58,966 nucleotides of DNA from an uncultured Flavobacteriales bacterium (GCA_938010565.1 CALLUQ010000093.1:1-58966), one strand, 5' to 3'; numbered from the stretch's first letter, positions 26,860-45,819 are shown. The notes: generated by a model not told the origin, from the sequence alone. Translations and numbers: made by a program.

Positions 26860-28182
26860 ATGAGCACAACCGCACAAAATGAAACGCTAAAGTATAAAGT
26901 AAAAGACATTTCTCTCGCCGATTGGGGGCGTAAAGAAATTGTCCTTGCCGAAGCTGAAATGCCCGGTTTAATGTCGCTGCGTAAAGAGTATGGCACCAGC
27001 AAACCCTTGGCCGGGGCTCGCATAGCCGGCTGTTTACACATGACCGTCCAAACGGCTGTTCTTATCGAAACGTTGACAGCACTGGGTGCAGAAGTTACCT
27101 GGAGTTCATGTAATATTTTCTCTACCCAGGATCATGCTGCTGCGGCCATTGCTGCTACCGGTATTCCTGTGTATGCCTGGAAAGGGATGACAGACGATGA
27201 GTTCTGGTGGTGCATTGAACAGACACTCTTTGCCTTTAAAGACGGGCAACCTTTGAATATGATTTTGGATGACGGGGGTGATCTGACCAACGCTGTGCTG
27301 GATAACCATCCTGAATTGATCAAGGCCATCAAAGGCCTTTCCGAAGAAACCACTACCGGTGTTCACCGTTTGTACGAACGGGAGCGAAATGGCACATTGC
27401 CCATGCCCGCGATCAACGTAAACGATTCGGTCACCAAATCTAAATTCGATAACAAATACGGATGCCGCGAATCACTGGTAGACGCCATTCGCCGTGCTAC
27501 GGATTTGATGTTGGCAGGGAAAGTAGCGGTAGTGGCAGGCTTTGGCGATGTCGGGAAAGGTTCTGCGGAATCGCTTCGTTCTGCCGGAGTACGCGTTATC
27601 GTTACTGAGATCGATCCTATTTGTGCACTTCAGGCGGCTATGGAAGGCTTTGAGGTCAAGAAAATGGATGATGCGGTAAAAGAAGCCGACATCGTTGTAA
27701 CCGCAACCGGGAACAAAGACATCATCTCCGGTCGTCATTTCGAAAACATGAAGGACAAAGCCGTGGTATGCAACATCGGTCATTTCGATAACGAAATTGA
27801 CATGGCCTGGCTGGATACGAATTACGGAACCAGCAAAGTAGAAGTGAAGCCACAGGTAGATATGTATACCTTAAAAAAAGGAAACGATATCATTGTATTG
27901 GCAGAAGGCCGTTTGGTAAACCTGGGGTGTGCCACAGGCCATCCGTCATTTGTAATGTCCAACTCTTTCACCAATCAGACCCTTGCTCAAATTGAACTTT
28001 GGAACAATAGCGAAACCTACGAGAACAAAGTATACACGTTGCCAAAGCGTCTGGATGAGAAAGTAGCCCGCCTCCACCTGAAAAAAGTGGGTGTCGAACT
28101 GGAAATCCTTTCCGAAGATCAGGCCAATTATATTGGAGTAGCTGTAGAAGGGCCTTACAAACCGGAATATTACCGTTACTAG
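26860..28182 (+). CDS. ahcY: adenosylhomocysteinase
   Basis: 440 aa with the NAD-binding GFGDVGKG motif and C-terminal ..[10 protein letters not shown]. Confidence 0.97.
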
Positions 28183-28221
28183 ATGCGCATGCGCATAACC
28201 TATTTGTTTGTCTGTTAAACT

Positions 28222-28253
28222 AAAAAAGCCCCGAATTTATTCGGGGCTTTTTG
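28222..28253 (+). terminator. rho-independent terminator after ahcY
   Basis: aaaaagccccgaa-ttta-ttcggggcttttt. Confidence 0.75.
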
Positions 28254-28331
28254 TCAAAATCCCCACCCCATAGGAGTTCATTCATTCTGAGCGCACATCG
28301 ATCCCGGAAAGCGGAACTTTTCTGATCGTCC

Positions 28332-28495
28332 CTAGTGTTAAGTCAGGTGTACTGTGTCGTATAAGTTGCCGGTATTTTTTTCCGTACCATGCGAAAAATA
28401 GGAGCTTAGTGTAGCTAAGGGATTATCTTTTAAAGAAGTCCGGGATAAAAAGATCAAAACTTGGTGCGGCTAAAGTATGCTTGACTTGACACTAG
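28332..28495 (-). repeat. MITE-like intergenic repeat, full copy (inverted relative to the 56372 copy)
   Basis: Terminal inverted repeats ctagtgttaagtcagg.. / ..cttgacttgacactag. The reverse complement aligns along its length with 56372-56560, minus an internal ~25 bp. Confidence 0.85.
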
Positions 28496-28500
28496 CCCGA

Positions 28501-28956
28501 TCAGTTGAAAACCTGAAGGGTGGTTCCGTCAAAGGTGGTTTGATACGGGTGCAATGGCAGGGCAGCAGGACCTTCGATTACAGAACCATCTGTAATGGAC
28601 CACTCTGACCCGGAGCAGGGATCATGAACGATCAATTGGGATGGCCCTACTTCCACCGTACAGTATTCTTCAATCTCATAAGTGGCATGCCGGTCATAGG
28701 CTTTGAAATCATCTTGAGAAGATCGGTAGATCAAAATGCCGCGGCTGCCCCCCGTAACATACACCCATCCGCCCGTTACATTTAGATCAATGTAAGCAGG
28801 CAAGGTGGTATTGATCACGGCATGAACAGGAACATACGGAATCTGTTGCGCCGGCTTTTTACAGCCGGAAAAACCAAAGGCAGCCAACAGGGTTACCGTT
28901 AACAGAAAAAGGTGCCCTTTCCTATATTTCGTTATGTTGTTCACAAGAGGTTGCAC
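28501..28956 (-). CDS. hypothetical lipoprotein
   Basis: 151 aa with a lipobox (FGFSGC) and no recognised family. GTG start is uncertain. Confidence 0.6.
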   Translation of the reverse strand: MQPLVNNITKYRKGHLFLLTVTLLAAFGFSGCKKPAQQIPYVPVHAVINTTLPAYIDLNVTGGWVYVTGGSRGILIYRSSQDDFKAYDRHATYEIEEYCTVEVGPSQLIVHDPCSGSEWSITDGSVIEGPAALPLHPYQTTFDGTTLQVFN

Positions 28957-29005
28957 TTAAGATTACGCTAAATTCTGTAATATTATTACACGATAAGAAA
29001 ATACG

Positions 29006-29335
29006 ATGGCAAATTTTTTTTTAAAGATAAGCTTGTTTCTCGTTCTACTCACTGTTCCTTTTGCTGCCGATGCACAAAAAGGGAAGCGAACAAAAAAATC
29101 GAAGAAAGAATTTGCTGAGAAAAAAGAAGACCGCCATGAAGCAGAACTGAAAGCACAGGAAGAAAGAAAGAAACGCCACAAGCAACTTCAAAACAAGGAA
29201 GTTCGCAAGCGAATGAAACGATCGGCTAAAAAAGCCAGTCGCAATCGCCAGGGAAAAAGAGTTTCGGGGAGCAGTTCGCGAAAGCGCAAAGGAAAGAAAG
29301 CGTTTTTTCCGGTGCGATGGATGAAAAAAAGATAA
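29006..29335 (+). CDS. hypothetical secreted, extremely K/R/E-rich small protein
   Basis: Signal peptide (FLVLLTVPFAADAQ) followed by about 85 aa of KKSKKEF/RKRMKR-type low complexity. Shadow ORFs on the opposite strand are expected from the composition. Confidence 0.5.
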   Translation: MANFFLKISLFLVLLTVPFAADAQKGKRTKKSKKEFAEKKEDRHEAELKAQEERKKRHKQLQNKEVRKRMKRSAKKASRNRQGKRVSGSSSRKRKGKKAFFPVRWMKKR

Positions 29336-29532
29336 GATCAGCCCCTTATGCATGCATGGTTATTCCGAATTTTATCAAAGGCTTTTTTGCTGTGTGATCA
29401 GGCCTTTTTAAATGGTCTTCCGGATGCACGGAACCGATAGGATTCGAAGGAGAAAGAGTTGGGATTGTAAAAAGAAAATATTTCTATATTTACGCACTTT
29501 GTTGCGAAGTTATTAAATGTAAAACAGTAGAT

Positions 29533-32500
29533 ATGTTGCGAAAACTACAGTTACTCACTGTATTTACTTTGTTGTCGGTGCTTTCTGTGCATGCACAAGG
29601 AGGTATGGGCACACTTAGGGGTAAAGTTTTGGATGCCGGTAGTGGCGAAGCACTGCCATTTGTAAACCTCATTTTGGAATTGAATGGTATCCAGAAATAC
29701 GGTGGGTCTACCGACTTTGACGGCGGCTTTGATATCAAACCCATTACCCCCGGAAAGTACGATCTTAAAGTTTCCTTCTTAGGTTATGGCCCTGTTCTTA
29801 TAAAAGGAGTGGTGATCCGTGCCGGAAAAATTACGTTCCAGGACGTTGAAATGAAAGAAACGGCCGAAAAGCTGGAAGAAGTTGAAGTGGTGGATTATGT
29901 CGTTCCGCTCATCGACAAAGACGGAGGCGCTTCGGGCGGAACCGTAACCCGCGACGATATTGCCAAAATGCCGGGCCGTTCTGCGGCCTCCATTGCCACT
30001 ACAGTGGGGGGGGTTGCTTCGGATGCAAACGGAAATATTACCAGTATTCGCGGAGCACGTAGCGATGCCAACTACTACTACATCGATGGCATCAAAGTAC
30101 GTGGATCGTCTTCCCTTCCAAAATCTGCCATTGAGGAAGTAACGGTGGTTACCGGTGGTTTACCTGCCAACTTTGGCGATGCTACCGGAGGGATTATTTC
30201 GATTACCACACGTGGCCCGTCAAGCGAATACGCTGGTGGCATCGAAGTCCTTTCTTCGGGATTTAAATCCGGCGATAACATTTACGGCCTGGATAAATTT
30301 GGATACAACCTGGTGGAAGGTTCCATTTCCGGCCCGCTGATGTTCCGTAAAGACAGTGCCGGTAAAAAAACCAACTCGTTGCTGGGCTTCTTCCTTTCCG
30401 GAAACTTCACCTCGCGACAGGAGCCCCGCCCATTGGCCCAAGGCAACTACATTGTAAAAGACGAAGTACTGGCCGATTTATTGCTCAACCCCACCCGGCC
30501 GGCCCCAACAGGCAACGGAATTGAATACAACACCGACTTCATCACCATGGACAACCTCCAGAAGAAGGCGTACCGCCCGAATATGGCCGACAACAGTTTT
30601 ACCTTGGCGGGAAAAATTGATGTCAACACTGGCCCTTCCGTAAACCTGGCCTTTGGCGGTTCTATGGATTACCAACGCGGTCGGCTCTATGATTACAGCG
30701 GATCCGTATTCAACTACAACAACTACGGCCTGTATACGGATTACGACTGGCGGGTTTATGGTAAGCTGACCCAGCGTTTTTCCAACAACACCGAAGGCGA
30801 AGAAAACAACTCTTTGATCAGCAATGCCTATTACACCGTAATGATCGATTACTCCAAGGGTTACCGTAAAAGAGAAGATGCCGACCACCGCGATAACCTT
30901 TTCGGGTACGGCTACATTGGGAAATACATTACCCACCGCGAGAAATCGTACGATTTTGTAGAACAGGAAAACGGTGTTTTTAACATGATTCAAAGTGGTA
31001 CTTACGGAGAGCGCGATACCTTGGTCACATTTATACCTTCCGATGTGAATGCGGAAATGGCCGCGCTCACTTCTCAGTATTTCAATACCTTTACCGATCC
31101 GGAAGGAAATTACGAAAACTTTACTCAGATTGGTGCAGGCAGAGGCCTGCTGAACGGTGATCTTCCTATTCAGGTTTACGGCTTGTGGGACAACTTCGGA
31201 ACCAATTACAACAGATACCAGTTGACGGATTTTAACCAATTCCGCATTACGGCCTCCGGTGCTGCCGATATTGGCGACCATGCCATCTCTGTCGGTTTTG
31301 AGTATGAACAACGGACGGACCGTTCTTTCCGCATAGATCCGGTCGAACTCTGGACGTTGATGCGCCAAGAGTCCAACTTTCACCTCCAGGAGTTGGACCC
31401 GTCTTCGGCCACAACCTATAACATTGGTACTACTTTCGTAACCGAGTACGACCGGCTGGTAGGGAAGGATGATATTTTTCGCTTTTCTTACAACCTTCGT
31501 GAGAAATTAGGGCTTGATCCGCTGGGAACCGATCTGGTGGATGTAGATGCATTGGATCCGTCTATGTTTACGCTGGATCTTTTTTCTCCCGATGAATTGT
31601 TAGACCAGAATTCCCTTAATGTTAACTATTACGGCTACGACCACACGGGTAAAAAACAGACTTCATCGCCAGGGCTGGACGATTTTTTCACGGAAGTAGA
31701 TGAAAATGGCGACTTTACCCGCCCTATTGCGCCTTTCCGCCCGATTTACATTGCAGGGTTTATAATGGACAAATTTACTTTTGACGACATTATTTTTAAC
31801 GTAGGTGTGCGCATAGACCGTTACGATGCCAACCAACAAGTATTAAAAGACCAGTATTTGCTTTACGAAGCACGCCAGGTAAGCGAGGTTACTCAGATGG
31901 AGGGGATAGACGTAATCCATCCGGAGAACATGGGGGACGATTACGTTGTATATGTCAACGACATCAACGATCCAACGGCCATTAACGGGTATCGCAACGG
32001 CGATACCTGGTTCAATGCCGATGGCGCTGAAGTAACGGACCCTTCCGTGATCCGTGCGGCCACCGGAATTGCTCCTTACCTGCTGGATGCCGAACAGGAA
32101 GGGCCCTCTTCATCTGCCTTTAAAGATTATGAACCTCAGGTAATTGTAATGCCGCGTGTGGCTTTCTCTTTTCCCATTTCCGACGAAGCGTTGTTCTTTG
32201 CCCACTACGACATCCTTTCCAAACGCCCCACTTTTGGTGACCGCCTGAACCCGATCGATTACCTCTACCTCGAAGAGGGTACCAATGGTATCATTAGTAA
32301 CCCCAACCTTCGTCCGGAAAAAACCATCGATTACGAACTTGGGTTCCAGCAGGTGCTTTCAAAGTCTTCTTCCCTGAAAATTTCAGCATTTTACCGCGAG
32401 TTGCGCGATATGGTACAGATAATCAATGTGAACGAAGCTTATCCGCGTTCTTATTCTACCTACGGTAACGTTGATTTTGGTACCATTAAAGGCATGACGG

Positions 32501-33228
32501 TTGCTTACGACCTGCGCCGTACCGGTAACGTATGGTTCCGGGCCGCTTATACCCTTCAATTTGCAGAAGGGACCGGCTCAAGTGCTACCAGCCAGTTCAA
32601 CCTGGTCAATTCGGGGCAACCCAATTTGCGAACCATTTCCCCTTTCAGCTACGATCAGCGGCACCAGATCGTCGGTACTTTTGATTACCGCTACGGCGGC
32701 GGAGACGATTACAACGGCCCCGTCTGGTTCAACAAACGCATTTTCGAAAACACCGGAGCCAACTTTCAGGCCAATCTTGCCTCAGGTACGCCTTATAGTG
32801 CGCAGAAACGCATTACTGCCGATGGAACAACCATCCGTGATAATGGAACTGTAGATGGGTCATCAAACGGGCAGCTCGATGGTCAGATCAACGGTTCGCG
32901 TAACCCGTGGCAATTCCGTGTCAATACACAGATCGACCGCGACATTGTGTTGAAGTTTGGCAAAGACGAAGACAACAAAAAAACCGCTAACCTCAATGTA
33001 TATCTTCTGGTAAACAACCTTTTTAATACGTTAAACATCATCAACGTATACAGGGCCACCGGTAACCCCGATGATGATGGTTATCTTGCCGCTGCCGAAT
33101 TCCAAAATTTAATTCAACAACAGAACGACGAACAGGCCTACCGCGAATTATATGCGCTTAAAGTCAACAATCCGTTTAACTACTCCGTGCCACGGACCAT
33201 CCGTTTGGGGGTAAGGTTTGACTTCTAA
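29533..33228 (+). CDS. CarboxypepD_reg-like domain-containing TonB-dependent-receptor-like outer-membrane barrel (1231 aa)
   Basis: Signal peptide, GTLRGKVLDAGSGEALPFVNL (CarboxypepD_reg), plug (IRGARSDANYYYIDGIKV, GGIISITTRG) and a long barrel ending ..RLGVRFDF. Confidence 0.9.
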   Translation: MLRKLQLLTVFTLLSVLSVHAQGGMGTLRGKVLDAGSGEALPFVNLILELNGIQKYGGSTDFDGGFDIKPITPGKYDLKVSFLGYGPVLIKGVVIRAGKITFQDVEMKETAEKLEEVEVVDYVVPLIDKDGGASGGTVTRDDIAKMPGRSAASIATTVGGVASDANGNITSIRGARSDANYYYIDGIKVRGSSSLPKSAIEEVTVVTGGLPANFGDATGGIISITTRGPSSEYAGGIEVLSSGFKSGDNIYGLDKFGYNLVEGSISGPLMFRKDSAGKKTNSLLGFFLSGNFTSRQEPRPLAQGNYIVKDEVLADLLLNPTRPAPTGNGIEYNTDFITMDNLQKKAYRPNMADNSFTLAGKIDVNTGPSVNLAFGGSMDYQRGRLYDYSGSVFNYNNYGLYTDYDWRVYGKLTQRFSNNTEGEENNSLISNAYYTVMIDYSKGYRKREDADHRDNLFGYGYIGKYITHREKSYDFVEQENGVFNMIQSGTYGERDTLVTFIPSDVNAEMAALTSQYFNTFTDPEGNYENFTQIGAGRGLLNGDLPIQVYGLWDNFGTNYNRYQLTDFNQFRITASGAADIGDHAISVGFEYEQRTDRSFRIDPVELWTLMRQESNFHLQELDPSSATTYNIGTTFVTEYDRLVGKDDIFRFSYNLREKLGLDPLGTDLVDVDALDPSMFTLDLFSPDELLDQNSLNVNYYGYDHTGKKQTSSPGLDDFFTEVDENGDFTRPIAPFRPIYIAGFIMDKFTFDDIIFNVGVRIDRYDANQQVLKDQYLLYEARQVSEVTQMEGIDVIHPENMGDDYVVYVNDINDPTAINGYRNGDTWFNADGAEVTDPSVIRAATGIAPYLLDAEQEGPSSSAFKDYEPQVIVMPRVAFSFPISDEALFFAHYDILSKRPTFGDRLNPIDYLYLEEGTNGIISNPNLRPEKTIDYELGFQQVLSKSSSLKISAFYRELRDMVQIINVNEAYPRSYSTYGNVDFGTIKGMTVAYDLRRTGNVWFRAAYTLQFAEGTGSSATSQFNLVNSGQPNLRTISPFSYDQRHQIVGTFDYRYGGGDDYNGPVWFNKRIFENTGANFQANLASGTPYSAQKRITADGTTIRDNGTVDGSSNGQLDGQINGSRNPWQFRVNTQIDRDIVLKFGKDEDNKKTANLNVYLLVNNLFNTLNIINVYRATGNPDDDGYLAAAEFQNLIQQQNDEQAYRELYALKVNNPFNYSVPRTIRLGVRFDF

Positions 33229-33261
33229 GCCACATTTGCAGAATTACAACAGCATTTACTT

Positions 33262-36200
33262 ATGAAGAAAAGAGGAAATAACATTTGGGTGTTCACTGCA
33301 TCTTTCCTGATGTTGACCGGTAGCGCATCCGGATATCACAACCAGTACCTCAGGTCTGGAAAAACAAACACGGATCCACCCGCTGTCACCAACGCTAAAG
33401 CAGCAAATTGTGCACCTGCTACCAGCCAGATAAATTTGGAATTGAACAACGTTCGGGCCTTGGTCGAAACCGGTGGTTCGATGTTCCAGAACCGTGCTGC
33501 GGGATCCGCAGCTTACTTTGTGCCGAAACCCCGAACCGAGGACGACCCTAAAACCACGGCCATTTTTGCGGGCGCACTTTGGATGGGCGGGCTTGATATC
33601 AATGGCCAGCTAAAATTGGCTGCTGTTCGTTTCCGGCAAAATGGAAACGACTTCTGGGCCGGCCCGTTATCCGTAATTGCGGGTACAGCCGATCCGAACA
33701 ACAGCAACAGCCGGGATTTTGGCCCTGCGGAAATTGAGCCGGATGTTTGTATGCAATACGATAAGTTTTTCGAGATCAATCGCCCGGAAGTGGACCTTTT
33801 CAATAGCTGGTGGGCAGCAGGCATTGCCGATGCTACCAATGGAACAACAACACAGGCTGAGGATTTTCCGAACTATACCGTGCCTTCCTCCATACTGGAA
33901 TGGCCGGCCCATGGCGACGTTTCCAAGGGGCAGGATTTTTACCTGGCTCCATTTTACGATCGGAACCAGGATGGTTTGTACGATCCTTTAGGGGCCGGAG
34001 ATTATCCGTGGTATGATCTGGAAAGCGAAGTGGATTGTCGTTCTGCAACCGACCGTCGGGTAACCCTGTTTGGCGACCAGACTTTCTGGTGGATATTCAA
34101 CGACAAAGGAAACATCCACACCGAAACAGGATCCGACCCCATTGGGATGGAGATACGGGCACAGGCTTTTGCTTTTGCCACCAACGATGAGATCAACAGC
34201 ATGACCTTCTACAACTATGAAATGATCAACCGGGGTACACAAACCCTTTTTGATACGTATTTTGGCCAGTGGATCGATGCGGATGTAGGGGGAGCTTTTG
34301 ATGATTACGTGGGATGTGATGTGGCCCGTGGGCTCGGATATGCATACAATGGAGATGCCAACGATGAGGGTCCGACCGGTTACGGGATCAACCCTCCTTG
34401 TATTGCGGTTGATTTCTTTGAAGGACCTTACCAGGATGACGATGGGATCGACAATGCATTTGGAATTGCTGAAGGCGAAGCGTTGAATGGGGTGGGATAT
34501 GGCGATGGAGTAGCCGATAACGAACGTTTCGGAATGCGCCGCTTTTTGTATCATAACAACACAGGGGGGAACCCTAACCAAACCGACCCGGAAAGCGGTA
34601 TTGATTATTACAACTACCTCCGTGGGATATGGAAAGACGGACAAAAATTCGTTTACGGGGGTTCCGCTCACCCTTCCGATCCCGCGGCCGATAACAACCA
34701 GAATTGTGATTTTATGTTCCCGGGAGATTCCGATCAGGAATACTACTGGGGAACCCAGGGAAATGCCGTACCCGTTTGGACGGAGCAGAGCGCGGGTAAT
34801 ACCCCTTTTGATCGTCGGTTTATGCAATCTGCCGGACCGTTTACCCTGCGACCCGGTGCGGTAAACAACATAACGGTTGGCATTGTTTATGCTCGTGCTA
34901 ATTCGAGCGATCCTTTTGCCTCTGTCGAAAAAGCACGTGTGGCAGATGATAAAGCCCAGGCTTTGTTTGACAACTGCTTTAAAGTATTGAATGGACCCGA
35001 TGCGCCGGATATTACGATCCAGGAGTTGGAAAATGAGTTGGTGCTTACGTTGAGCAACTCTTCCACTTCTAACAACGTTAACGAATCGTATGTAGAGCTG
35101 GATCCGTTCATTCCGGAAAATATCGTAACCAGCACGGTGAGCTTTTTATTGGATACGGCTACCGGTCAGTACGTTCCCGATACTACCATAACCGTAGTGG
35201 AATTGGATCGTTATTACCGCTTCGAAGGGTACCAGATCTTCCAGTTGAAAAGTGCTACGGTAGGGCCGGATGAATTGGGAGAAACGGATAAGGCCCGGCT
35301 GATTGCACAGTGTGACCTTAAGAACGGCGTTGAGGAGTTGATCAATTACGAATTTGACGAAGACCTTCAGGCTTCTGTTCCCAAAAAGAAAGCAGAAGGC
35401 CTGGACGAGGGTATGGACAACGGCATTGTACGCTCCTTCCGGATCACGCAGGATGAGTTTGCACAAGGAGAACGTACGCTGGTGAACCACAAGTCTTACT
35501 ACTACATGGCCATTGCTTATGGTTATAACAACTACAAAACATTCAACCCCAATGAAGCCGATGCATTGGACGGACAAAAGTTTCCATACATTGCTTCCCG
35601 TAAATCACCTTCTGGAGCCATTCGATCTTACGTGGGCATTCCGCACAACCCCACCCCGGAAGCGGGTGGTACGGTAGCCCGTTCGACTTATGGCGATGGG
35701 CCTGAAATTACCCGTGTGGAAGGACAAGGAAACGGAAGTCTGGAACTCGATTTTACCACTTCCACCGAAGCAACGATCGTTACCAACTACCGCATGGCCA
35801 CCCCCACTTACCAGGCCGGTAAAGGCCCGATCAACGTAAAAGTGATCGATCCGCTGAACGTGCCCGATGCCCGCTTCCGGCTGCATTTTTTGGAAGATGA
35901 TCAAGGCAAACTGGATTCTTCGCTTTGGGTGTTAACGGTGCTGGATGCCATACCCGCTGCCAATATACCTGCCGGTGAAACCTATACGGCCGATAAAACC
36001 ATTGCGATCTGCAATGAACAATTGTTCCCTGAATTTGGTTTTTCGATCGGAATTGAACAGTATGCCTACACCCAGGAAGGTTCGGAGTTTTTTACCGAAC
36101 TGATCGAAGGTGCATCCAACATCGTGTTTACCGATAGCACCCGACGGTGGTTAACCGGTGTTCCGGATCTGGATGGTTTCTCCGAGCAAAACTGGATCCG

Positions 36201-37380
36201 TAGCGGAACAGCTGAGGAAGATGCTCCGCCGAACGACATCTACAATGACTATCTCGGGCTTGATGACGAAGAACTTTATGAAAACATACTCGGAGGCTGG
36301 TGGGCTCCCTGGCGCTTGATAGCCGATGAGCCTGGCGGACCCTTAGGCCCGGACTTTGCGAATACCATTGCAATGGCCGATATTGCCAACCTGCAATCGA
36401 TAGACATTGTGATTACCAACGACCAGAGCCTCTGGACCCGTTGTGCCGTGATCGAGTTGCAAGAAGATCCCATTCTGGCAGAAGGCGGAGCGGTTAAAAG
36501 CGACCTTCGTGCCGCACCTAGTGTAGGCAAAGACGGGCAACCGGATGGCACCGGCAACGGCATGGGGTGGTTCCCCGGATATGCCATTAACCTGGAAACC
36601 GGCGAACGCCTGAACATGGCCTTTGGCGAAGACAGCTGGCTGGCTGGCGATAACGGCCGCGATATGAAATGGAATCCAAGCGATCGCATGTACACCAATT
36701 TATTCAGCCCTCGGTTTGGCGGCAAACATTACATCTATGTGTTCAATAACGAAGTGGCCGCTACCGGAGACAACACCCGTATGCCCGCCTACGACGAAGG
36801 CCTTTACCTGGAAACCCAGATGAACGGCAGCACCGGCGATAAGATCAGGGTTTACCGTTCCGTTTGTTGGGTGGGTTTACCTTTGTTGGAAGATGGAGCA
36901 ACGTTCATGAGTACGGATGTAAGAATCCGTTTGCGGGTAAAAAAGCCCTACGAAACGTTTGATACGGGCGCAGGAACAGTACTCAACAACTGGCGTCCGA
37001 TGTACGAATGGGACATGGGCAACCTGGCTACTTCTAAGGCCAATGCAACTGCCGCCGACAATGCGCTTGAACTCATCAACATTGTACCGAACCCTTATTA
37101 TGGTTCGTCAACCTACGAAACCAGTCGGTTGGATAACCGGGTAAAATTGGTGAACCTTCCCGAAACATGTAAGATCCGTATCTACAATGTGAAAGGAACA
37201 CTGGTGCGTACTTTCGACAAAGACAACGTGCAAACCTACCTCGATTGGGACCTGAAAAACCATGTTGGAATACCCATTTCCGGTGGGATTTACATCATTC
37301 ATGTTGACGTGCCGGATGTAGGAGAAAAAATAATCAGATGGTTCGGAGCTACACGACCAACCGACTTGGAGAACTTCTGA
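33262..37380 (+). CDS. 1372-aa secreted protein with a T9SS-like C-terminal beta-sandwich domain; function unknown
   Basis: Signal peptide without a lipobox and Asp-rich Ca-binding-like loops (DDDGIDNAFG, GDGVADNERFG). The C-terminus reads IVPNPYYGSS...KIRIYNVKGTLVRTF...GGIYIIHVDV. It starts 33 nt after the upstream gene. Confidence 0.85.
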   Translation: MKKRGNNIWVFTASFLMLTGSASGYHNQYLRSGKTNTDPPAVTNAKAANCAPATSQINLELNNVRALVETGGSMFQNRAAGSAAYFVPKPRTEDDPKTTAIFAGALWMGGLDINGQLKLAAVRFRQNGNDFWAGPLSVIAGTADPNNSNSRDFGPAEIEPDVCMQYDKFFEINRPEVDLFNSWWAAGIADATNGTTTQAEDFPNYTVPSSILEWPAHGDVSKGQDFYLAPFYDRNQDGLYDPLGAGDYPWYDLESEVDCRSATDRRVTLFGDQTFWWIFNDKGNIHTETGSDPIGMEIRAQAFAFATNDEINSMTFYNYEMINRGTQTLFDTYFGQWIDADVGGAFDDYVGCDVARGLGYAYNGDANDEGPTGYGINPPCIAVDFFEGPYQDDDGIDNAFGIAEGEALNGVGYGDGVADNERFGMRRFLYHNNTGGNPNQTDPESGIDYYNYLRGIWKDGQKFVYGGSAHPSDPAADNNQNCDFMFPGDSDQEYYWGTQGNAVPVWTEQSAGNTPFDRRFMQSAGPFTLRPGAVNNITVGIVYARANSSDPFASVEKARVADDKAQALFDNCFKVLNGPDAPDITIQELENELVLTLSNSSTSNNVNESYVELDPFIPENIVTSTVSFLLDTATGQYVPDTTITVVELDRYYRFEGYQIFQLKSATVGPDELGETDKARLIAQCDLKNGVEELINYEFDEDLQASVPKKKAEGLDEGMDNGIVRSFRITQDEFAQGERTLVNHKSYYYMAIAYGYNNYKTFNPNEADALDGQKFPYIASRKSPSGAIRSYVGIPHNPTPEAGGTVARSTYGDGPEITRVEGQGNGSLELDFTTSTEATIVTNYRMATPTYQAGKGPINVKVIDPLNVPDARFRLHFLEDDQGKLDSSLWVLTVLDAIPAANIPAGETYTADKTIAICNEQLFPEFGFSIGIEQYAYTQEGSEFFTELIEGASNIVFTDSTRRWLTGVPDLDGFSEQNWIRSGTAEEDAPPNDIYNDYLGLDDEELYENILGGWWAPWRLIADEPGGPLGPDFANTIAMADIANLQSIDIVITNDQSLWTRCAVIELQEDPILAEGGAVKSDLRAAPSVGKDGQPDGTGNGMGWFPGYAINLETGERLNMAFGEDSWLAGDNGRDMKWNPSDRMYTNLFSPRFGGKHYIYVFNNEVAATGDNTRMPAYDEGLYLETQMNGSTGDKIRVYRSVCWVGLPLLEDGATFMSTDVRIRLRVKKPYETFDTGAGTVLNNWRPMYEWDMGNLATSKANATAADNALELINIVPNPYYGSSTYETSRLDNRVKLVNLPETCKIRIYNVKGTLVRTFDKDNVQTYLDWDLKNHVGIPISGGIYIIHVDVPDVGEKIIRWFGATRPTDLENF

Positions 37381-37413
37381 TTTGAAGGCTTAAAAAAGAC
37401 CAAATTGCAGAAA

Positions 37414-38502
37414 ATGAAGAAACGTACAATAAATCATCTGGCGGGATGGATGGCAACGGGAATGTTGCTTTCGGTACCTGCAACATCTTTTGCCGGAAAC
37501 GAGGATCGTGCCGGATCTGCCGGAGCAACAGAGTTGTTAATTAACCCATACGCTGCCAGTGCAGGTTGGGGAGATGCCGCTACTGCTGCTGCTAATGGAG
37601 TAGATGCCATGTACCTGAACATTGCCGGAACGGCTTTTACCAAAGGCACGGAGGTCATGTTTACCCGTACAGACTGGCTGGTGGGTTCGGGTACTACCAT
37701 CAATGCCGTCGGATTGACCCAACGGGTAGGAGAATCCGGTGTACTTGGCCTGAGCCTGATGAGCATGGCCTTTGGCGATATTGAGATCACCACTACGGAG
37801 CTTCCGGAAGGAGGGATCGGTACATTTCGCCCTTCCTATTCCAATTTATCGCTTTCTTATGCGAAAGAGTTTTCGAACAGCATTTACGGTGGTTTGGCGG
37901 TGAAAGTCATTTCACAGCGCATTGCCGATGTAGGAGCAACAGGCGTTGCATTTGATGCAGGCATCCGTTACGTAACAGGAGAGTTTGATCAGGTTAAGTT
38001 TGGCATTGCTCTGCGTAATGTAGGGCCTCCGATGTCTTTCTCCGGAGATGGCTTTTCCATTTCAGCTGTTCCGCAAGGCGAGGAAGATGAAGTAACCCTC
38101 GAACAACGTTCGGCAAGTTACGAACTGCCTTCACAGGTGAACATCGGAGTAAGCTATCGCTTTGATTTTAACGAAATGAACCAATTAACCCTGGCCGGAA
38201 ATTTTATTTCCAACTCTTTCACCAAAGACCAGTTTAATGGAGGTGCCGAGTATCGATTTGATGCTTCCAAAGCGTCTGTCATGCTTCGTGCAGGTTACAC
38301 CTGGGAAGAATCGGTGGGCGATGCCCTGACCCGCAGTACGGCACTCACCGGACCTGCTGCCGGTTTTTCTGTTGAATTGCCCGCCGGTGAAACCGGAACC
38401 CTGATCATCCTCGACTATGGTTACCGGGCTACCAACCCCTTTGGAGGTGTACATCACATCGGTGCACGCATTGCCCTTGGGGGAGGTGCCAAAGAGAAGT
38501 AA
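37414..38502 (+). CDS. PorV/PorQ-family (FadL-like) outer-membrane beta-barrel
   Basis: Signal peptide followed by ELLINPYAASAGWGDAATAAANGVDAMYLNIAG, which resembles the PorV N-terminal motif. It has an alternating beta-strand pattern and an aromatic C-terminal region. The ATG at 37414 is preferred over the TTG at 37405. Confidence 0.7.
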   Translation: MKKRTINHLAGWMATGMLLSVPATSFAGNEDRAGSAGATELLINPYAASAGWGDAATAAANGVDAMYLNIAGTAFTKGTEVMFTRTDWLVGSGTTINAVGLTQRVGESGVLGLSLMSMAFGDIEITTTELPEGGIGTFRPSYSNLSLSYAKEFSNSIYGGLAVKVISQRIADVGATGVAFDAGIRYVTGEFDQVKFGIALRNVGPPMSFSGDGFSISAVPQGEEDEVTLEQRSASYELPSQVNIGVSYRFDFNEMNQLTLAGNFISNSFTKDQFNGGAEYRFDASKASVMLRAGYTWEESVGDALTRSTALTGPAAGFSVELPAGETGTLIILDYGYRATNPFGGVHHIGARIALGGGAKEK

Positions 38503-38536
38503 TTGGTACTTGAAAAGAATATTTATTACCTTAGTG

Positions 38537-38570
38537 AGAATCCCACGATTGTGGGATTCTTTCTTTTTTT
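38537..38570 (+). terminator. rho-independent terminator closing the three-gene outer-membrane operon
   Basis: agaatcccac-gatt-gtgggattct followed by ttcttttttt. Confidence 0.75.
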
Positions 38571-38594
38571 GAATCCCTTCAACATCTATTGAGT

Positions 38595-39071
38595 ATGTCG
38601 CAACAAGTCGTATATCTAACGGAGGAAGGATTGGCTAATTTGAAGGCTGAGATCAAGCAAATGGAGTATGTAGACCGTCCTCGGATCTCTCAGCAAATTG
38701 CCGAGGCGCGTGATAAAGGTGACCTTTCCGAAAATGCCGAATATGATGCTGCCAAAGAAGCTCAGGGCCTTTTGGAAGGCAAGATCGCCAAAATGAAAAG
38801 CATTCTCGCCAACGCTCGTTTAGTGGATGAAACCAACATGGACACTTCACGGGTTTTAATCCTCGCTACTGTTAAAATTAAACACCTGAAAATGGGCAAG
38901 GAATTTTCCTATACCCTTGTCGCTGAAAATGAAGCGAACCTGAAATTGGGTAAGATCTCCGTAGAATCGCCCATTGGTAAAGGCCTTTTGGGCAAGAAGG
39001 TGGGAGATATTACACAAGTGGAAACACCAAATGGAATTACGGAATTTGAAATTCTCGAAATTACCCGATAA
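38595..39071 (+). CDS. greA: transcription elongation factor GreA
   Basis: ARDKGDLSENAEYDAAKE motif. The ATG at 38595 is preferred over the TTG at 38589. Confidence 0.93.
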   Translation: MSQQVVYLTEEGLANLKAEIKQMEYVDRPRISQQIAEARDKGDLSENAEYDAAKEAQGLLEGKIAKMKSILANARLVDETNMDTSRVLILATVKIKHLKMGKEFSYTLVAENEANLKLGKISVESPIGKGLLGKKVGDITQVETPNGITEFEILEITR

Positions 39072-39080
39072 AATTTGCCT

Positions 39081-39470
39081 ATGCCTTCTGTTTTTACCCG
39101 TATTATCCGTGGCGAGATTCCCTGTTATCAGGTAGCGGAGAACGAACATTACATGGCCTTTTTAGACATTAACCCTTTGCAAAAGGGACATACGCTGGTG
39201 GTTCCCAAACAAGAGACGGATTACATTTTCGATCTGGAAGATAAGGTACTGAGCGGATTGTTTGTATTTGCCAAAGAAGTAGCCGGAAAAATCGAAAAGG
39301 TGTTTCCGTGCGATCGGATCGGGATCACCGTGATCGGTTTGGAAGTGCCACATGCCCATGTACATCTGATTCCCATTCATGAAGAAAAGGATATGAATTT
39401 TTCCGGCCCGAAAATGGTGCTTTCTGCCGAAGAAATGCTCGAAATTGCACAACGGCTTAGCGAAGCCTAA
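39081..39470 (+). CDS. HIT family (histidine triad) protein
   Basis: IIRGEIP N-terminus and the HAHVHLIP triad. The ATG at 39081 is preferred over the TTG at 39075. Confidence 0.9.
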   Translation: MPSVFTRIIRGEIPCYQVAENEHYMAFLDINPLQKGHTLVVPKQETDYIFDLEDKVLSGLFVFAKEVAGKIEKVFPCDRIGITVIGLEVPHAHVHLIPIHEEKDMNFSGPKMVLSAEEMLEIAQRLSEA

Positions 39471-40021
39471 AGTTTTCTTTTCGGATGATCCGATAAAAAG
39501 GCTTTCCAACCCGTATAGCTTTTTGCGCTGCCAGATGCTTTCGAATGCTGAAAGTAGTGGCAAACTGCTGTTGCGAGGCCGTCTGTTGCATCCGGGTTTT
39601 TAGGCATGGCTTTAACAGAAAACAACGATTGAAGCATTCCGGCCACCTGCTCTTTGGAAGCATTGCCATTGCCGGTGATGCTCTTCTTGATTTTTTTCGG
39701 AGCGTATTCCACATAAGGGATCTGACGGGATAATACCGCTGCAATTGCCACACCCTGTGCACGGCCCAGCTTCAACATGGATTGCACGTTTTTACCATGA
39801 AACTGGGCTTCAATGGCCAATTCATCCGGATGATATTCCTCGATCAGACCAATGGTACGCTCGTAAATTTTTTGCAGTTTGAGTGCATGACCCGTGTACT
39901 TGCTCAAGGCAATGGAACCCATGCTGACCAGGCTCATTTCTTTTGCTGTAATTTGAATGACACCGTATCCCATAATGGTGGTTCCGGGATCTATACCAAG
40001 AATTATTCTGTCTTCTGTCAA
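39467..40021 (-). CDS. ruvC: crossover junction endodeoxyribonuclease RuvC
   Basis: ILGIDPGTTIMGYGVI N-terminus, 184 aa. TTG start. Confidence 0.92.
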   Translation of the reverse strand: MTEDRIILGIDPGTTIMGYGVIQITAKEMSLVSMGSIALSKYTGHALKLQKIYERTIGLIEEYHPDELAIEAQFHGKNVQSMLKLGRAQGVAIAAVLSRQIPYVEYAPKKIKKSITGNGNASKEQVAGMLQSLFSVKAMPKNPDATDGLATAVCHYFQHSKASGSAKSYTGWKAFLSDHPKRKL

Positions 40022-40047
40022 AAGCGTAGCTTTGTGTAATTGGGTTT

Positions 40048-41016
40048 ATGGTTAAGTTTTGTTCACACCGATTTCTGCTCCCGGGCCTGAAGGCATTCAT
40101 TTTTCTGATGGCCCTGGGTTACATCTGGTACCAGCTTTTCCACGATAAAGATACGAATTTCCAATGGGTTGTTTTTCGGATGGAATGGCAGGTAAGGCCT
40201 CTTATGCCCATGCTTCTGATCGTTTTGCTTATGCCTTTAAATTGGGGAGCAGAAGCTTTTAAATGGCGTTACATGGTGAAACCCATCGAAAAAGTGAATC
40301 AGGGTAAAGCGATACGGGCCATCCTGGCAGGCACCACCATTACTTTGATCACGCCCAACCGTACAGGAGGGTTTATGGGCCGGGTCCTGTTTCTTCGACC
40401 GGAAAACCGTGCGAAGGCCTCCTGGGTAAGCATTTTGGGCAATATCAGCCAGTTGTTGGTTACTTTGTTTGCCGGTAGCTTGGCACTTTTGTTACTGCCA
40501 GGATCCGTTTTTCCCGGGAAAACAATGTTGGTGCTGTTGGCTGTTCCTGCAAGTTTACTGGCCATGTTTTGCTACTGGAGAGCCGATTGGTGGGCTGCAA
40601 AAGTGGGGGGGTGGAAACGCTTTAAAAAATTATCCGGGGCTGCAAATGTGCTTACAACATTGTCTTTTAGATCATTGAACATTACCTTGCTCTGGAGTAC
40701 GGTTCGCTACTTTATTTTTGCCCTACAGTTCTGGCTCATGCTGAATTGGTGCGGAGTAAAAGCGCATCCCTTCACATTGTGGGGTCTTCTTGCGCTTGCT
40801 TATCTTTTGGTGGCATTAATTCCCTCCGTTTTGTTGGGAAGCCTTGGGATCCGGGAGTCTGTCGTTCTTTTTCTTTTTAAAGATATGGGCGCTTCCGCTG
40901 AAATTTTAATGGCAGGGAGCCTCCTGCTTTGGATGATCAATCTGGTTATTCCTGCTTTGGCCGGAGGAGCAATGCTTATGCTGCTCCGCATACCACTGAA
41001 AGAACCCCTCGTTTGA
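40048..41016 (+). CDS. flippase-like / lysylphosphatidylglycerol-synthase-TM-region family membrane protein
   Basis: 322-aa polytopic membrane protein. The family call rests on overall pattern and on pairing with a GT2 gene. Confidence 0.65.
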   Translation: MVKFCSHRFLLPGLKAFIFLMALGYIWYQLFHDKDTNFQWVVFRMEWQVRPLMPMLLIVLLMPLNWGAEAFKWRYMVKPIEKVNQGKAIRAILAGTTITLITPNRTGGFMGRVLFLRPENRAKASWVSILGNISQLLVTLFAGSLALLLLPGSVFPGKTMLVLLAVPASLLAMFCYWRADWWAAKVGGWKRFKKLSGAANVLTTLSFRSLNITLLWSTVRYFIFALQFWLMLNWCGVKAHPFTLWGLLALAYLLVALIPSVLLGSLGIRESVVLFLFKDMGASAEILMAGSLLLWMINLVIPALAGGAMLMLLRIPLKEPLV

Positions 41017-42445: not shown

Positions 42446-44671
42446 ATGAAAGAGCGGCAACCGATACATCCGGAACGGGAAAAACAGGAAATACTCAATG
42501 CGTATCGGGGGCTTTTGCGTGCCCATTCGTCAAGAGACAAAGAAGCTACGCGACGCATTCGCAAAGCTTTTAATGTAGCGGTTGAAGCCCACAAAGACAT
42601 GCGCCGGAAATCGGGCGAACCTTATATCTATCATCCCATTGCCGTTGCACGCATTGCTGCTGAAGAAATAGGGTTGGGTACCACCTCTGTTATTTGTGCT
42701 TTGCTTCACGATACGGTGGAAGATACCGATATTACGCTGGAAAACATCCATTCGATGTTTGGTCCGAAAGTGGCTTCTATTATTGATGGGCTCACAAAAA
42801 TTTCCGGCATTTTTGATGCCACGGTTTCTCCGCAAGCCGAAAACTTTCGCAAAATGCTGCTTACCCTTTCGGACGATGTAAGGGTAATTCTCATCAAACT
42901 GGCCGATCGTTTGCACAACATGCGAACCCTGAGCAGCATGCAACAGAATAAACAACTCAAAATTGCATCCGAAACGTTGTACCTCTACGCTCCGCTTGCG
43001 CATCGCCTGGGGTTGTATACCATTAAAAGTGAACTCGAAGACCTTTCGCTGAAATACAAAGAGCCCTCCGCATGGGAAGAGATCTCACAAAAACTGAAAA
43101 AGGGAAAAGCAGTACGCCAGCGTTTCATTTCTCGCTTTATCCTCCCGATCAAGCGCCAACTCAACAATCTGAATTATATCTTTGAGGTAAAAGGTCGCCC
43201 CAAATCCGTTTATTCGATCTGGAATAAGATGCGCACCAAGAATGTACCCTTCGAAGAGGTGTATGATCTGTTTGCCATTCGGATTACCCTGAATGTTCCG
43301 GTCGGTGCTGAAAAATCGGAATGTTGGAAAGTATATTCCATTGTAACCGATTATTACAAGCCCAACCCCGATCGTTTGCGGGATTGGATCTCCACGCCAA
43401 AAGGCAATGGCTATGAGTCGTTGCACACCACCGTGATGAGTCCGTCCGGAAAATGGGTAGAAGTACAAATTCGTACCCGGCGTATGGATGAAATTGCAGA
43501 AAAAGGATACGCTGCACATTGGAAATACAAAACCAAAGGCGAAAAAAGCCAGGAAAGTGGCTTGGACGGATGGCTGGCCCGGATCCGTGAACTGCTCGAA
43601 ACATCCGCCGAAAATGCCATCGATTTTATCGATGATTTTAAAATGAACCTTTTTACGGATGAGGTGTATGTTTTTACACCCGAAGGCGATCTAAAAACCC
43701 TTCCCAAAGGAGCCACAGCCCTCGATTTTGCATTCGACATCCACACCCAGGTAGGGCAAAAATGCCTGGGAGCCAAAGTAAACCACCGCCTCATGCCTTT
43801 GAGCCACAAGTTAAGAAGCGGAGATCAGGTGGAAATCATTACTTCGGAAAAACAATCGCCCAAAAACGACTGGCTGAAATTTGCCATCACTACCAAAGCG
43901 CGGAACAAGATCAAATCCGCACTGAAAGAAGAAAAGAAAAATATTGCAGCGGAAGGCAAAGAAATGCTTGCCCGAAAGCTCAAAAGTTTAAAAGCAAACT
44001 TTAACGGAGAAAACATCGATGTACTCATCCGGAAATATAAAACCGGATCGGCACTTGAATTGTACTTCCGCATTGCCAAAGGCAACATCGATCTAAAAAA
44101 ATTGCACAAAACAAACATTGCCGTAAAAAACGGGATGATAAGTCCGGTATCCGAAAAAAAGCAGCAAAAAAACAATTCCCTCGAACAGATCATTACCCGC
44201 TACAATGGGACTAAAGATGTGCTGTTGATCGGCGATGAATACCAAAAACTGGATTATACCCTCGCTCTATGCTGTAACCCGATCAGCGGAGATGATGTTT
44301 TTGGGTTTATTACCGTTGCCGATGGCATTAAGATCCATCGGGCTACCTGTCCCAATGCCACAGCCCTTATGGGCAACTATGCTTACCGTGTTCTACAAGC
44401 CAAATGGGTCAGCCAGTCGTTGAAAGAATTTGAAGCTTCGATCTCTTTCGAAGGAATTGATGACCTTGGATTGGTCAACAACATCACTTCCGTGATCTCG
44501 GCACAACAAAACATCAACATGAAAGCCATTAGTTTTGAAAGCAACGATGGCATTTTCTCCGGAAAAGTACGCGTTTTGGTACACGATACCGACCACCTGG
44601 ACACCCTCATCGTAGAATTGAAAAATGTAGATGGAGTACATCAGGTAGAACGCCTGACCGAGCACCTCTGA
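42446..44671 (+). CDS. bifunctional (p)ppGpp synthetase/hydrolase (RelA/SpoT homolog)
   Basis: 741 aa with an HD domain (HDTVEDT), synthetase domain (YESLHTTV), and TGS and ACT domains. Confidence 0.95.
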   Translation: MKERQPIHPEREKQEILNAYRGLLRAHSSRDKEATRRIRKAFNVAVEAHKDMRRKSGEPYIYHPIAVARIAAEEIGLGTTSVICALLHDTVEDTDITLENIHSMFGPKVASIIDGLTKISGIFDATVSPQAENFRKMLLTLSDDVRVILIKLADRLHNMRTLSSMQQNKQLKIASETLYLYAPLAHRLGLYTIKSELEDLSLKYKEPSAWEEISQKLKKGKAVRQRFISRFILPIKRQLNNLNYIFEVKGRPKSVYSIWNKMRTKNVPFEEVYDLFAIRITLNVPVGAEKSECWKVYSIVTDYYKPNPDRLRDWISTPKGNGYESLHTTVMSPSGKWVEVQIRTRRMDEIAEKGYAAHWKYKTKGEKSQESGLDGWLARIRELLETSAENAIDFIDDFKMNLFTDEVYVFTPEGDLKTLPKGATALDFAFDIHTQVGQKCLGAKVNHRLMPLSHKLRSGDQVEIITSEKQSPKNDWLKFAITTKARNKIKSALKEEKKNIAAEGKEMLARKLKSLKANFNGENIDVLIRKYKTGSALELYFRIAKGNIDLKKLHKTNIAVKNGMISPVSEKKQQKNNSLEQIITRYNGTKDVLLIGDEYQKLDYTLALCCNPISGDDVFGFITVADGIKIHRATCPNATALMGNYAYRVLQAKWVSQSLKEFEASISFEGIDDLGLVNNITSVISAQQNINMKAISFESNDGIFSGKVRVLVHDTDHLDTLIVELKNVDGVHQVERLTEHL

Positions 44672-45431: not shown

Positions 45432-45815
45432 ATGCGTTTTCAATTCAGTTTAACACCCGTTGCAGAACGGCCAGGTATGTTGCTGGCACAACTGAATGGC
45501 CGTTTGATCGATAAAAGCGAAGCACTGGTTTTGCTCAATCAACTGGAAGAATATTCCCTTGACGGGTGGGTACATGTTGTGATTGAAATGTCGGAACTTG
45601 ATTACATAAACAGCAGTGGACTGAACATACTGATAACGTTGTTGACCAGGTGCCGCAACGAAGGCGGAGAAATATTCCTTTGTAATATTTCGAAAAAGGT
45701 GAAAGCCCTCTTTATAATGACCAAATTAAACACCGTATTTACCATTACAGAAGATGTTGAAACAGCCATGAACCAGATGGCTGAGTTGATGAATGCTTCT
45801 TCTGAGCAAGAATGA
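45432..45815 (+). CDS. STAS domain protein (anti-sigma-factor antagonist family)
   Basis: 127 aa (IEMSELDYINSSGLNILITL..., KLNTVFTITEDVETA). The start is 1 nt after the fur stop. Confidence 0.8.
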   Translation: MRFQFSLTPVAERPGMLLAQLNGRLIDKSEALVLLNQLEEYSLDGWVHVVIEMSELDYINSSGLNILITLLTRCRNEGGEIFLCNISKKVKALFIMTKLNTVFTITEDVETAMNQMAELMNASSEQE

Positions 45816-45819
45816 AAAA

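Follow-up and report, generated by a model that had tools for sequence, protein, structure and literature searches.

In a 58,966-nucleotide stretch of DNA from an uncultured Flavobacteriales bacterium (GCA_938010565.1, CALLUQ010000093.1:1-58966; hereafter the window), three consecutive genes, here called A, B and C, form one operon encoding outer-membrane and surface proteins. Gene A encodes a TonB-dependent transporter, gene B a 1372-residue secreted protein that looks like a type IX secretion system (T9SS) cargo, and gene C a barrel of the PorV/PorQ family. The reading that we favor, and to which we give about even chances, is that B is exported by T9SS, docked on C by a C-terminal domain (CTD) that is retained, and used as the surface subunit of transporter A. 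A would then act as a TonB-energized transporter in an outer-membrane complex with B and C. B would be exported through Sec and T9SS, and its CTD, neither cut off nor glycolipid-anchored, would stay and dock on the extracellular face of C, much as PorZ is held by PorQ and PorU by PorV. Tethered in this way beside A, B would serve as a surface-exposed capture or processing subunit, in a role comparable to that of the lipoproteins SusD and BtuG in other Bacteroidota transporters, and our best guess at the ligand is a conserved glycan or another macromolecule. T9SS export, CTD retention, the B-C and B-A contacts, and both the direction (import) and the nature of transport are what we infer beyond the operon and family assignments described below.

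Operon structure and conservation of the triad

Gene A (29533-33228, plus strand) is an open reading frame (ORF) of 1231 codons for the TonB-dependent transporter, gene B (33262-37380, plus strand) an ORF of 1372 codons for the T9SS-type protein, and gene C (37414-38502, plus strand) encodes the 362-residue PorV/PorQ-family barrel. The mechanical ORF of C opens at a TTG at 37405, and the ATG at 37414 (MKKRT...) is the start that agrees with the homologs. The A-B spacer (33229-33261, plus strand) and the B-C spacer (37381-37413, plus strand) are both 33 nt long. An intrinsic-terminator-like hairpin with a T run (38536-38569, plus strand) ends the operon; the 11-bp, G+C-containing hairpin and its T run (38536-38561) lie 34 nt past the stop codon of C, and the hairpin has the longest stem of any terminator-like site within 28000-40500, while neither the A-B nor the B-C gap holds a comparable one. 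The original prediction had described three genes separated by 33-nt spacers with a strong terminator after the last one only, and the coordinates, spacers and hairpin agree with that description throughout. No further copies of A, B or C were found within the window.

The arrangement was followed in relatives by a genome scan seeded with B, which gave 39 loci (B 37-52% identical), and by a reciprocal metagenome scan seeded with the C profile, which gave 80 further loci. The metagenome-assembled genomes (MAGs) in the 39-locus set are labeled Flavobacteriales, Crocinitomicaceae, Weeksellaceae, Bacteroidales, Lentimicrobium, Draconibacterium and Sphingobacteriales. Every locus of this set with sufficient flanks has A, B and C on one strand and in unchanged order, except one that carries B alone (L039). 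Among the C-seeded loci, A lies upstream in all 43 that are testable and B was scored as adjacent in 56 of 65; in the cases checked, the misses trace to loci where another B lies between C and greA or where the B match was split. All three proteins are 36-56% identical across orders. This recurrence of A-B-C in the same order and strand in many lineages is far beyond chance, and the synteny in relatives on which the idea of a three-gene unit hangs holds in both sets and across the phylum.

Median spacers in related loci are 27 nt between A and B (25 loci) and 22 nt between B and C, whereas the spacing from C to greA is wider (median 84 nt) and extends beyond the terminator. The gene greA follows C in 33 loci of the 39-locus set and in 63 of 71 of the C-seeded set, and HIT follows in 29 loci of the 39-locus set. 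The upstream neighbors are less constant: of 31 loci, 10 keep a small, very basic secreted ORF and 14 a small opposite-strand lipoprotein, and ahcY is kept in 7 of 26. What distinguishes A-B-C from the remainder of the block is its tight spacing, its single terminator and its near-absolute co-occurrence, and the triad is an old, vertically kept unit in a housekeeping neighborhood. Two A-B-C loci of the 39-locus set came from MAGs labeled Verrucomicrobia and Clostridia (L021 and L037; about 45% identity to the window proteins). L037 also carries greA, and L021 ends within B; judged by their sequences, both are probably mis-binned Bacteroidota contigs rather than genuine occurrences outside the phylum.

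Gene A encodes a TonB-dependent transporter

Protein A consists of a signal peptide, a CarboxypepD_reg extension, a TonB-box-like segment, a plug, a very large barrel and a C-terminal beta-signal (...RLGVRFDF), and its sequence identifies it as a true TonB-dependent transporter. The N-terminal extension (29611-29889, plus strand; residues 27-119) matches the Pfam families CarbopepD_reg_2 PF13715 (46 bits) and PF13620 (43.2 bits), and by profile it matches the N-terminal extension domains of the TonB-dependent receptor 6ytc and of the SusC homolog 9hfj. The plug (29941-30318, plus strand; residues 137-262) matches Pfam PF07715 over residues 137-221 (32.1 bits, cut-off 23.9), and positions 129-262 of a family profile built from 22 orthologs match the plug of the colicin I receptor (Cir) with E 2.3e-12; searched against the PDB, the profile found the plugs of Cir, PirA and PfeA with E values from 2.3e-12 to 4e-6. 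The barrel matches TonB_dep_Rec_b-barrel PF00593 over residues 534-1064 (37.8 bits, cut-off 27), and the C-terminus ...R(L/I/M)G(V/L)xxxF is present in 22 of 22 homologs. The first gene had been predicted to encode a 1231-residue protein with CarboxypepD_reg, plug and barrel parts, all three of which score above their Pfam cut-offs.

Between extension and plug lies the segment LEEVEVVDYVVPLI (29872-29913, plus strand; residues 114-127), conserved as LxxVEV(V/I)xYxVPLI in the 22-sequence alignment of A, with I127 invariant and P125 and L126 conserved in at least 90% of the sequences. Bacteroidota transporters carry EVVV-type TonB boxes, and from its position and its likeness to these the segment is a putative TonB box. 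Membership of A in the SusC/RagA family was considered and rejected, given that A has no match to TIGR04056 or TIGR04057 at E <= 0.1 and is barely alignable with the window's own SusC (18647-21868; best BLASTP E 0.012). That SusC, which served as a control, scored 628.7 bits against TIGR04056 (cut-off 368) and matched the signature model as well.

Gene C encodes a dedicated PorV/PorQ-family paralog

Protein C is a FadL-type outer-membrane barrel of 362 residues with a signal peptide cleaved after A27. Against the NCBIfam model PorV_fam NF033709 it scores 139.9 bits, above the cut-off of 90, with residues 37-351 covering model positions 3-322 of 326, in agreement with the predicted PorV/PorQ-family barrel. 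Among solved structures in the PDB, its family profile found Flavobacterium johnsoniae PorV (6h3i_F) with E 2.5e-18, the other matches being the FadL-type proteins TodX and TbuX, which were weak. The models for the individual orthologs reject C as PorV, PorQ or PorV2 (NF033710, NF033711 and NF052325; 57.9 bits vs 250, 53 vs 220 and 36.4 vs 325, respectively), and the match to the PorP/SprF model is weak (19 bits against a cut-off of 90.55). By its sequence, C is thus assigned as a dedicated paralog within the PorV/PorQ family.

A BamG identity for C was also considered and set aside, the C profile finding PorV and, weakly, TodX/TbuX among the solved structures. The corresponding pairing of B and C as BamH and BamG was rejected as well: BamH is a surface lipoprotein with a lipidated N-terminal Cys (PMC12611786), and B lacks a lipobox.

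The C-terminal domain of B resembles CTDs that are retained

The CTD and tail of B (37123-37377, plus strand) comprise the CTD proper (residues 1288-1359) and a 13-residue tail, WFGATRPTDLENF (residues 1360-1372), and are preceded in the AlphaFold2 model by a low-confidence linker (residues 1281-1287). The model for PorZ (NF052228) matches B at 22.2 bits (E 4e-5), with residues 1259-1352 aligned to the model C-terminus only. Across the family, this PorZ-model C-terminus is matched by 34 of 36 members (best E 2.3e-9), TIGR04183 by 25 of 36 (best E 5.4e-6) and the PorU model by 13 of 36. Structure agrees with profile in that, in a Foldseek search with the model of residues 570-1372, the last ~85 residues of B gave PorZ as the best match (5m11, E 1.6e-5, 22% identity), followed by the cargo CTDs of SprA-PorV complexes (8gl8_D and 8glk_D, probability 1.00) and the RgpB CTD (7pq4). 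The extreme C-terminus has the CTD fold, a seven-stranded beta-sandwich. The T9SS-type CTD of the original prediction is borne out by fold; by profile, most family members match, the window B itself staying below the TIGR04183 cut-off. B, with its signal peptide and this CTD, looks like a T9SS cargo by sequence and by model. B is itself neither PorZ nor PorU: its 22.2 bits, confined to the CTD, fall far short of the PorZ equivalog cut-off of 260, and the window B has no match to the PorU model NF033707.

The CTD has a mean pairwise identity of 62%, equal to the most conserved part of B, while the middle of the protein stands at 48-50%, and the tail (...KWFGxxRPxDLxNF) is conserved at 58%. Conservation of this kind, together with the additional conserved tail, fits a fixed protein-protein interface. 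PorZ, on PorQ, and PorU, on PorV, are the two T9SS proteins that keep their CTDs bound to a barrel, and a review has speculated that cognate PorV-like barrels shield the CTD from cleavage (PMC10202324). Retention of the B CTD is favored since it best matches proteins that keep theirs, namely PorZ and, for 13 of 36 members, PorU.

The body of B is globular, beta-rich and without a recognizable relative

Protein B is organized as a signal peptidase I (SPI)-type signal peptide, a variable linker, a conserved and compact beta-rich body, and the type-A-like CTD. Its N-terminus, MKKRGNNIWVFTASFLMLTGSASG, reads as a basic n-region followed by a hydrophobic core. In 60 of 60 N-termini examined from a 96-sequence family alignment, the signal peptide is of the SPI type and no lipobox is present; it is followed by a variable linker of ~20-25 residues, after which conservation begins at (R/K)AAGC-APAT. 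The first Cys of B, one of 12, is residue 50, after signal peptide and linker. A lipoprotein nature of B is accordingly rejected, as is a SusD/RagB-like partner, there being no SusD-like Pfam domain, no lipobox, and only beta-rich models.

The family is large. More than 5578 homologs were recovered by word-sharing. The best 120 align over their full length at 49-76% identity and belong to Flavobacteriales, Crocinitomicaceae and Lishizhenia; their labels read either hypothetical or T9SS type A sorting / C-terminal target domain-containing protein. Nearly all family members derive from MAGs or metagenomes, with one RefSeq entry from Lishizhenia sp. An exhaustive HMMER search of 1.84 billion representatives returned 7330 clusters (50% identity) at E <= 1e-3 and 2040 at E <= 1e-30. 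The 96-sequence alignment contains ~190 invariant columns, including H286, E288, D339, D348, C352, D353, D419-N420-E421-R422 and H1156.

The body falls into an N-terminal conserved region (33394-34986, plus strand; residues 45-575; mean pairwise identity 62%), which holds Asp-rich loops and invariant residues and has a beta-supersandwich-like fold in the model, and a beta-rich central and C-terminal body (34987-37101, plus strand; residues 576-1280), which is confidently modeled. B was modeled with AlphaFold2 as two overlapping pieces, residues 36-640 (predicted local distance difference test [pLDDT] 86.9, predicted template modeling score [pTM] 0.85) and residues 570-1372 (model m3f7ed39d2a9c; pLDDT 91.5, pTM 0.86). 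Compact models with such pTM values argue for a globular protein rather than a fibrous adhesin. With Foldseek, both halves were compared with the PDB and the C-terminal half also with BFVD. The N-terminal half gave only weak matches (E 1.5e-7, with a TM score of 0.2-0.3) to N-terminal domains of the beta-supersandwich type in a GH15-like dextran dextrinase, in GH94 phosphorylases and in GH116 and GH63 enzymes (GH, glycoside hydrolase), a weak hint of a carbohydrate-binding-type fold in the model. For residues 570-1372, no credible neighbor outside the CTD was found in PDB or BFVD. Multi-domain matches to SpyCEP, complement and alpha-2-macroglobulin were taken as chance and rejected because their probability was <= 0.13 and their root-mean-square deviation ~30 Å.

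Sequence searches gave the same picture. Pfam, run on B and 35 relatives, found no family except CTD-type matches, NCBIfam gave C-terminal signals only, and a PDB search with the B sequence and the 36-sequence profile found no solved relative, the single match being the PorZ C-terminus at E 0.45. The metalloprotease motifs HEXXH and HXXEH are absent from B, and a DxNxDG Ca-type loop lies at residue 233, with further Asp-rich stretches elsewhere. The original prediction had pictured the middle protein as free of a lipobox and of a recognizable catalytic motif, rich in Asp-containing Ca-type loops, and without an assignable function, and it had called for structure prediction and Foldseek. Each of these descriptions stands: the first Cys and the 60 family N-termini show no lipobox, HEXXH is absent, the Ca-type loop is present, neither Pfam, NCBIfam and PDB searches nor Foldseek returned a characterized homolog or a catalytic domain, and the confident models have a convincing structural match in the CTD only. 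On these models, B is globular and beta-rich with several domains, and its body has no recognizable relative.

Additional and orphan B paralogs

Copies of B also occur outside the A-B-C order. A second B directly after C (A-B-C-B2) is found in several related loci: L018 (13106-17383), L029, L051, L052, L100 and L103. Where the neighbors are resolved, the second copy lies between C and greA, and in L018 between greA and HIT. Elsewhere, orphan B paralogs without A or C, 52-65% identical to the window B, stand beside a two-component system, and P0013 and P0060 are solitary copies. One assembly (ERZ26858987) combines a single triad in a window-like neighborhood (L045) with a tandem array of three B paralogs (L042-L044, contig_78), which stands together with a gene for a 571-residue Por_Secre_tail protein and adjoins a Reg_prop/Y_Y_Y histidine kinase and two LytTR regulators.

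The orphan proteins retain the same CTD and tail as triad B. Their loci (L040-L044) hold B either singly or as three in tandem with a Por_Secre_tail protein of 559-571 residues, followed always, on the opposite strand, by genes for an alpha/beta-hydrolase and an M24 Xaa-Pro aminopeptidase. Within the reading favored here, the C of the triad would probably serve the orphans in trans as well, as perhaps would A. By analogy, the closest described parallel is that of the orphan type B cargos of F. johnsoniae, three of which share one PorP/SprF-like shuttle (PMC12618676).

Comparison with described systems

The B-then-C gene order parallels that of porU-porV. Likeness to the T9SS attachment complex goes further, in that PorZ-PorQ and PorU-PorV also join a large type A CTD protein to a 14-stranded PorV/PorQ-family barrel that holds a retained CTD (PMC10202324), in that the B CTD is nearest the PorZ CTD by profile and structure, and in that C passes the family model. 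The differences are that the body of B is unrelated to the two beta-propellers of PorZ and to the C25-like peptidase of PorU, with neither equivalog model reached, and that the attachment complex has no TonB-dependent transporter, whereas in the triad A precedes the B-C pair.

SusCD, RagAB and BtuB-BtuG share with the triad a gene for a CarboxypepD_reg TonB-dependent transporter followed by a gene for a large surface partner. In contrast to SusC/SusD, A has no SusC/RagA match, B has a T9SS CTD instead of a lipobox, and a third gene, for a PorV-like barrel, is added; B is also beta-rich rather than helical with tetratricopeptide repeats as SusD is, and about 2.5 times the size of the window's 463-residue SusD-like protein. 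The SusC/SusD-like arrangement that had been proposed for the operon survives as a functional comparison and does not hold at the level of protein family, because A lies outside SusC/RagA and the fold of B is not SusD-like. Type B CTD cargos with cognate PorP/SprF-like shuttle barrels, such as SprB-SprF of F. johnsoniae, resemble the triad in linking a T9SS cargo gene to a dedicated outer-membrane barrel on which its fate depends, and the orphan cargos sharing one shuttle parallel the orphan B paralogs (PMC12618676). Cognate shuttle barrels encoded beside T9SS cargo are established for such type B CTDs (PMC12618676), while the B CTD is type-A-like, C belongs to the PorV/PorQ family and the triad includes a TonB-dependent transporter.

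A full-text literature search found no paper describing or testing the A-B-C triad, although two figure legends, in papers whose texts do not take them up, list similar genes. Fig. 2 of a study on Rhodothermus marinus gives a TonB-dependent receptor, a T9SS type A protein and a PorV/PorQ protein in an alginate utilization locus, that is, the same three annotation classes in the same order in a nutrient-utilization locus, placed where a SusC/SusD pair would otherwise be (PMC9530828). The proteins in that figure are much smaller, from genes of 2805, 2181 and 1056 nt, so that the middle product would have ~726 residues, and the likeness is one of annotation (PMC9530828). The figure key of a Porphyromonas hmu heme-uptake cluster likewise lists T9SS and porV/Q genes (PMC12106395). 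By analogy, these two legends suggest that the architecture recurs in nutrient-uptake loci, as far as annotation goes. The triad itself belongs, by sequence, to none of SusC, SusD, PorV, PorQ, PorV2, PorZ, PorU or BamG/H, while the broad classes of TonB-dependent transporter, PorV/PorQ family and CTD fold all apply.

Weighing the alternatives

Several observations weigh against B as a C-docked surface subunit of A. B is far larger than any known transporter lid and differs from all of them in fold. B is also very highly conserved and has numerous invariant Asp, His, Glu, Arg and Cys residues, which would suit an enzyme as well, and the disordered linker before the CTD is also expected of a cargo cleaved by PorU. 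Against the type A model itself (TIGR04183/PF18962), B reaches 15.6 bits (E 0.012) where the cut-off is 23. The existence of orphan paralogs means that B function is not strictly dependent on an adjacent A or C. Finally, synteny is conserved over the entire region, greA-HIT included, so on its own it overstates the functional linkage. Part of this evidence would suit a secreted enzyme, an explanation that we consider unlikely. Here B would be an ordinary T9SS cargo and C its private, transient shuttle; PorU would remove the CTD, and B, glycolipid-linked or released, would be a new hydrolase or lyase acting on an extracellular polymer, with A importing the products as part of a minimal utilization locus and no stable A-B complex being formed. 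The strong conservation and the many invariant acidic, His, Arg and Cys residues would be explained, as would the weak likeness of the N-terminal half to GH and phosphorylase beta-supersandwich domains (E 1.5e-7, TM 0.3), but no catalytic domain or motif emerged from Pfam, NCBIfam, the PDB profile search or Foldseek. The tandem arrays of B next to a Y_Y_Y/Reg_prop sensor kinase and LytTR regulators look inducible, and the trio annotated in the R. marinus figure belongs to an alginate utilization locus (PMC9530828), whereas the triad in the window has no genes for carbohydrate-active enzymes (CAZymes) or peptidases beside it. The flexible linker before the CTD, which cleavage would account for, has to be set against a CTD that equals the best-conserved part of B in conservation and lies nearest to the retained CTD of PorZ. 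In addition, every type A CTD is described as served by the general PorV (PMC12618676), so a private paralog would be needless for a transient shuttle.

A housekeeping envelope machine, engaged for example in the handling of surface glycan or lipopolysaccharide (LPS) or serving as a T9SS or gliding accessory rather than as a nutrient importer, appears to us distinctly improbable. In such a machine, A would be an anchor or outward channel, in a role like that proposed for PorF in Porphyromonas gingivalis or Oar in Myxococcus, and B the surface-exposed working subunit. The single conserved copy, fixed amid ahcY and greA-HIT-ruvC in distant lineages, and the unusual conservation of all three proteins across orders (36-56% identity) would suit a core function, but the additional copies of B and the orphans look more like diversification by substrate than like one core machine. 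PorF, which is TonB-dependent-receptor-like and required for gingipain secretion, offers a precedent, as cited in PMC8564354. However, PorF reportedly lacks a plug, while the plug of A is complete and accompanied by a conserved TonB-box-like motif, both typical of importers. The CTD of B is nearest that of PorZ, a subunit of the T9SS attachment complex, yet B is neither PorZ (22 bits vs 260, CTD only) nor PorU, and C is not BamG, whose partner BamH is a lipoprotein (PMC12611786). That the three genes are mere neighbors in a syntenic block, each acting independently, we regard as very improbable indeed. It is true that greA-HIT and, in part, ahcY are also conserved neighbors without an obvious functional tie, but the A-B-C genes lie on one strand with spacers of about 20-35 nt and a single terminator after C, greA being more widely spaced (median 84 nt) and past that terminator, and A-B-C is essentially always present where the upstream neighbors occur in only 10-14 of 31 loci. 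All three products are, moreover, outer-membrane or surface proteins, and a CTD protein with a PorV-family barrel is a known type of functional pairing (PMC10202324, PMC12618676).

Significance of the triad

It is possible, and put forward only tentatively, that the triad represents an outer-membrane machine of a new class widespread in Bacteroidota, a TonB-dependent transporter with a 150-kDa surface subunit of previously unseen fold. Two themes of this phylum appear to be fused in it, namely a TonB-dependent transporter with a surface partner and a PorV/PorQ barrel holding a retained CTD. If B is indeed docked on C beside A, the triad would provide a third route for building cell-surface complexes, besides lipidation and attachment to anionic LPS (A-LPS), and T9SS would build stable transporter complexes in addition to delivering secreted enzymes and adhesins. 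The "extra" PorV/PorQ paralogs would gain a function, and the combination of a PorZ-like CTD, a conserved tail and an adjacent PorV-like barrel would predict which type A cargos retain their CTD, making the triad a handle on how some type A CTDs escape cleavage. B would then found a new family of binding proteins or enzymes, its paralogs interchangeable on an A/C chassis. Specialists would be surprised that a family so large and so conserved, with more than 7000 clusters at 50% identity, has no domain model, structure or name.

Genomic neighborhood within the window

The genes around the triad in the window are housekeeping genes only, with no CAZyme or peptidase genes flanking it: ahcY lies upstream, and downstream of C follow greA (38589-39071), HIT (39075-39470) and, also 3', ruvC. 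A riboswitch that might name a substrate was sought with Rfam, and no element reached the gathering threshold across the whole window, the matches upstream of A at 28150-29600 being at chance level.

Two small genes upstream of the triad recur with it. A 109-residue ORF (29006-29335, plus strand), 197 nt 5' of A, encodes a signal peptide followed by an extremely Lys/Arg-rich sequence, and at least 10 of 31 loci have a homolog sharing QTKEVQKRMKKS+KK just 5' of A in the same orientation; this ORF may be a fourth member of the locus. A 151-residue small lipoprotein (28501-28956, minus strand; lipobox FSGC) belongs to no Pfam or NCBIfam family, contains the conserved motifs GGWxYxxGGSRGIIVYR and AYDRHCT, and is encoded divergently upstream of the triad in 14 of 31 loci.

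Farther away, the window carries a classical pair (17236-21868, minus strand) of a SusC/RagA protein (1073 residues, 18647-21868) and a SusD-like_2 lipoprotein (463 residues, 17236-18627). A 273-residue protein (15756-16577, minus strand) has an N-terminal TssD/Hcp domain (Pfam PF17642, E 1.2e-13); no further type VI secretion genes were seen close to it, and its neighbor is a 160-residue ORF without a family (15260-15742). Toward the other end, RelA/SpoT (42446-44671) and adenylosuccinate synthetase (45793-47109) lie upstream of two further genes of outer-membrane biogenesis, which encode an OstA_2/LptD_N protein of 545 residues (47151-48788, plus strand) and an LptD_2 family protein of 862 residues (53787-56375, plus strand).

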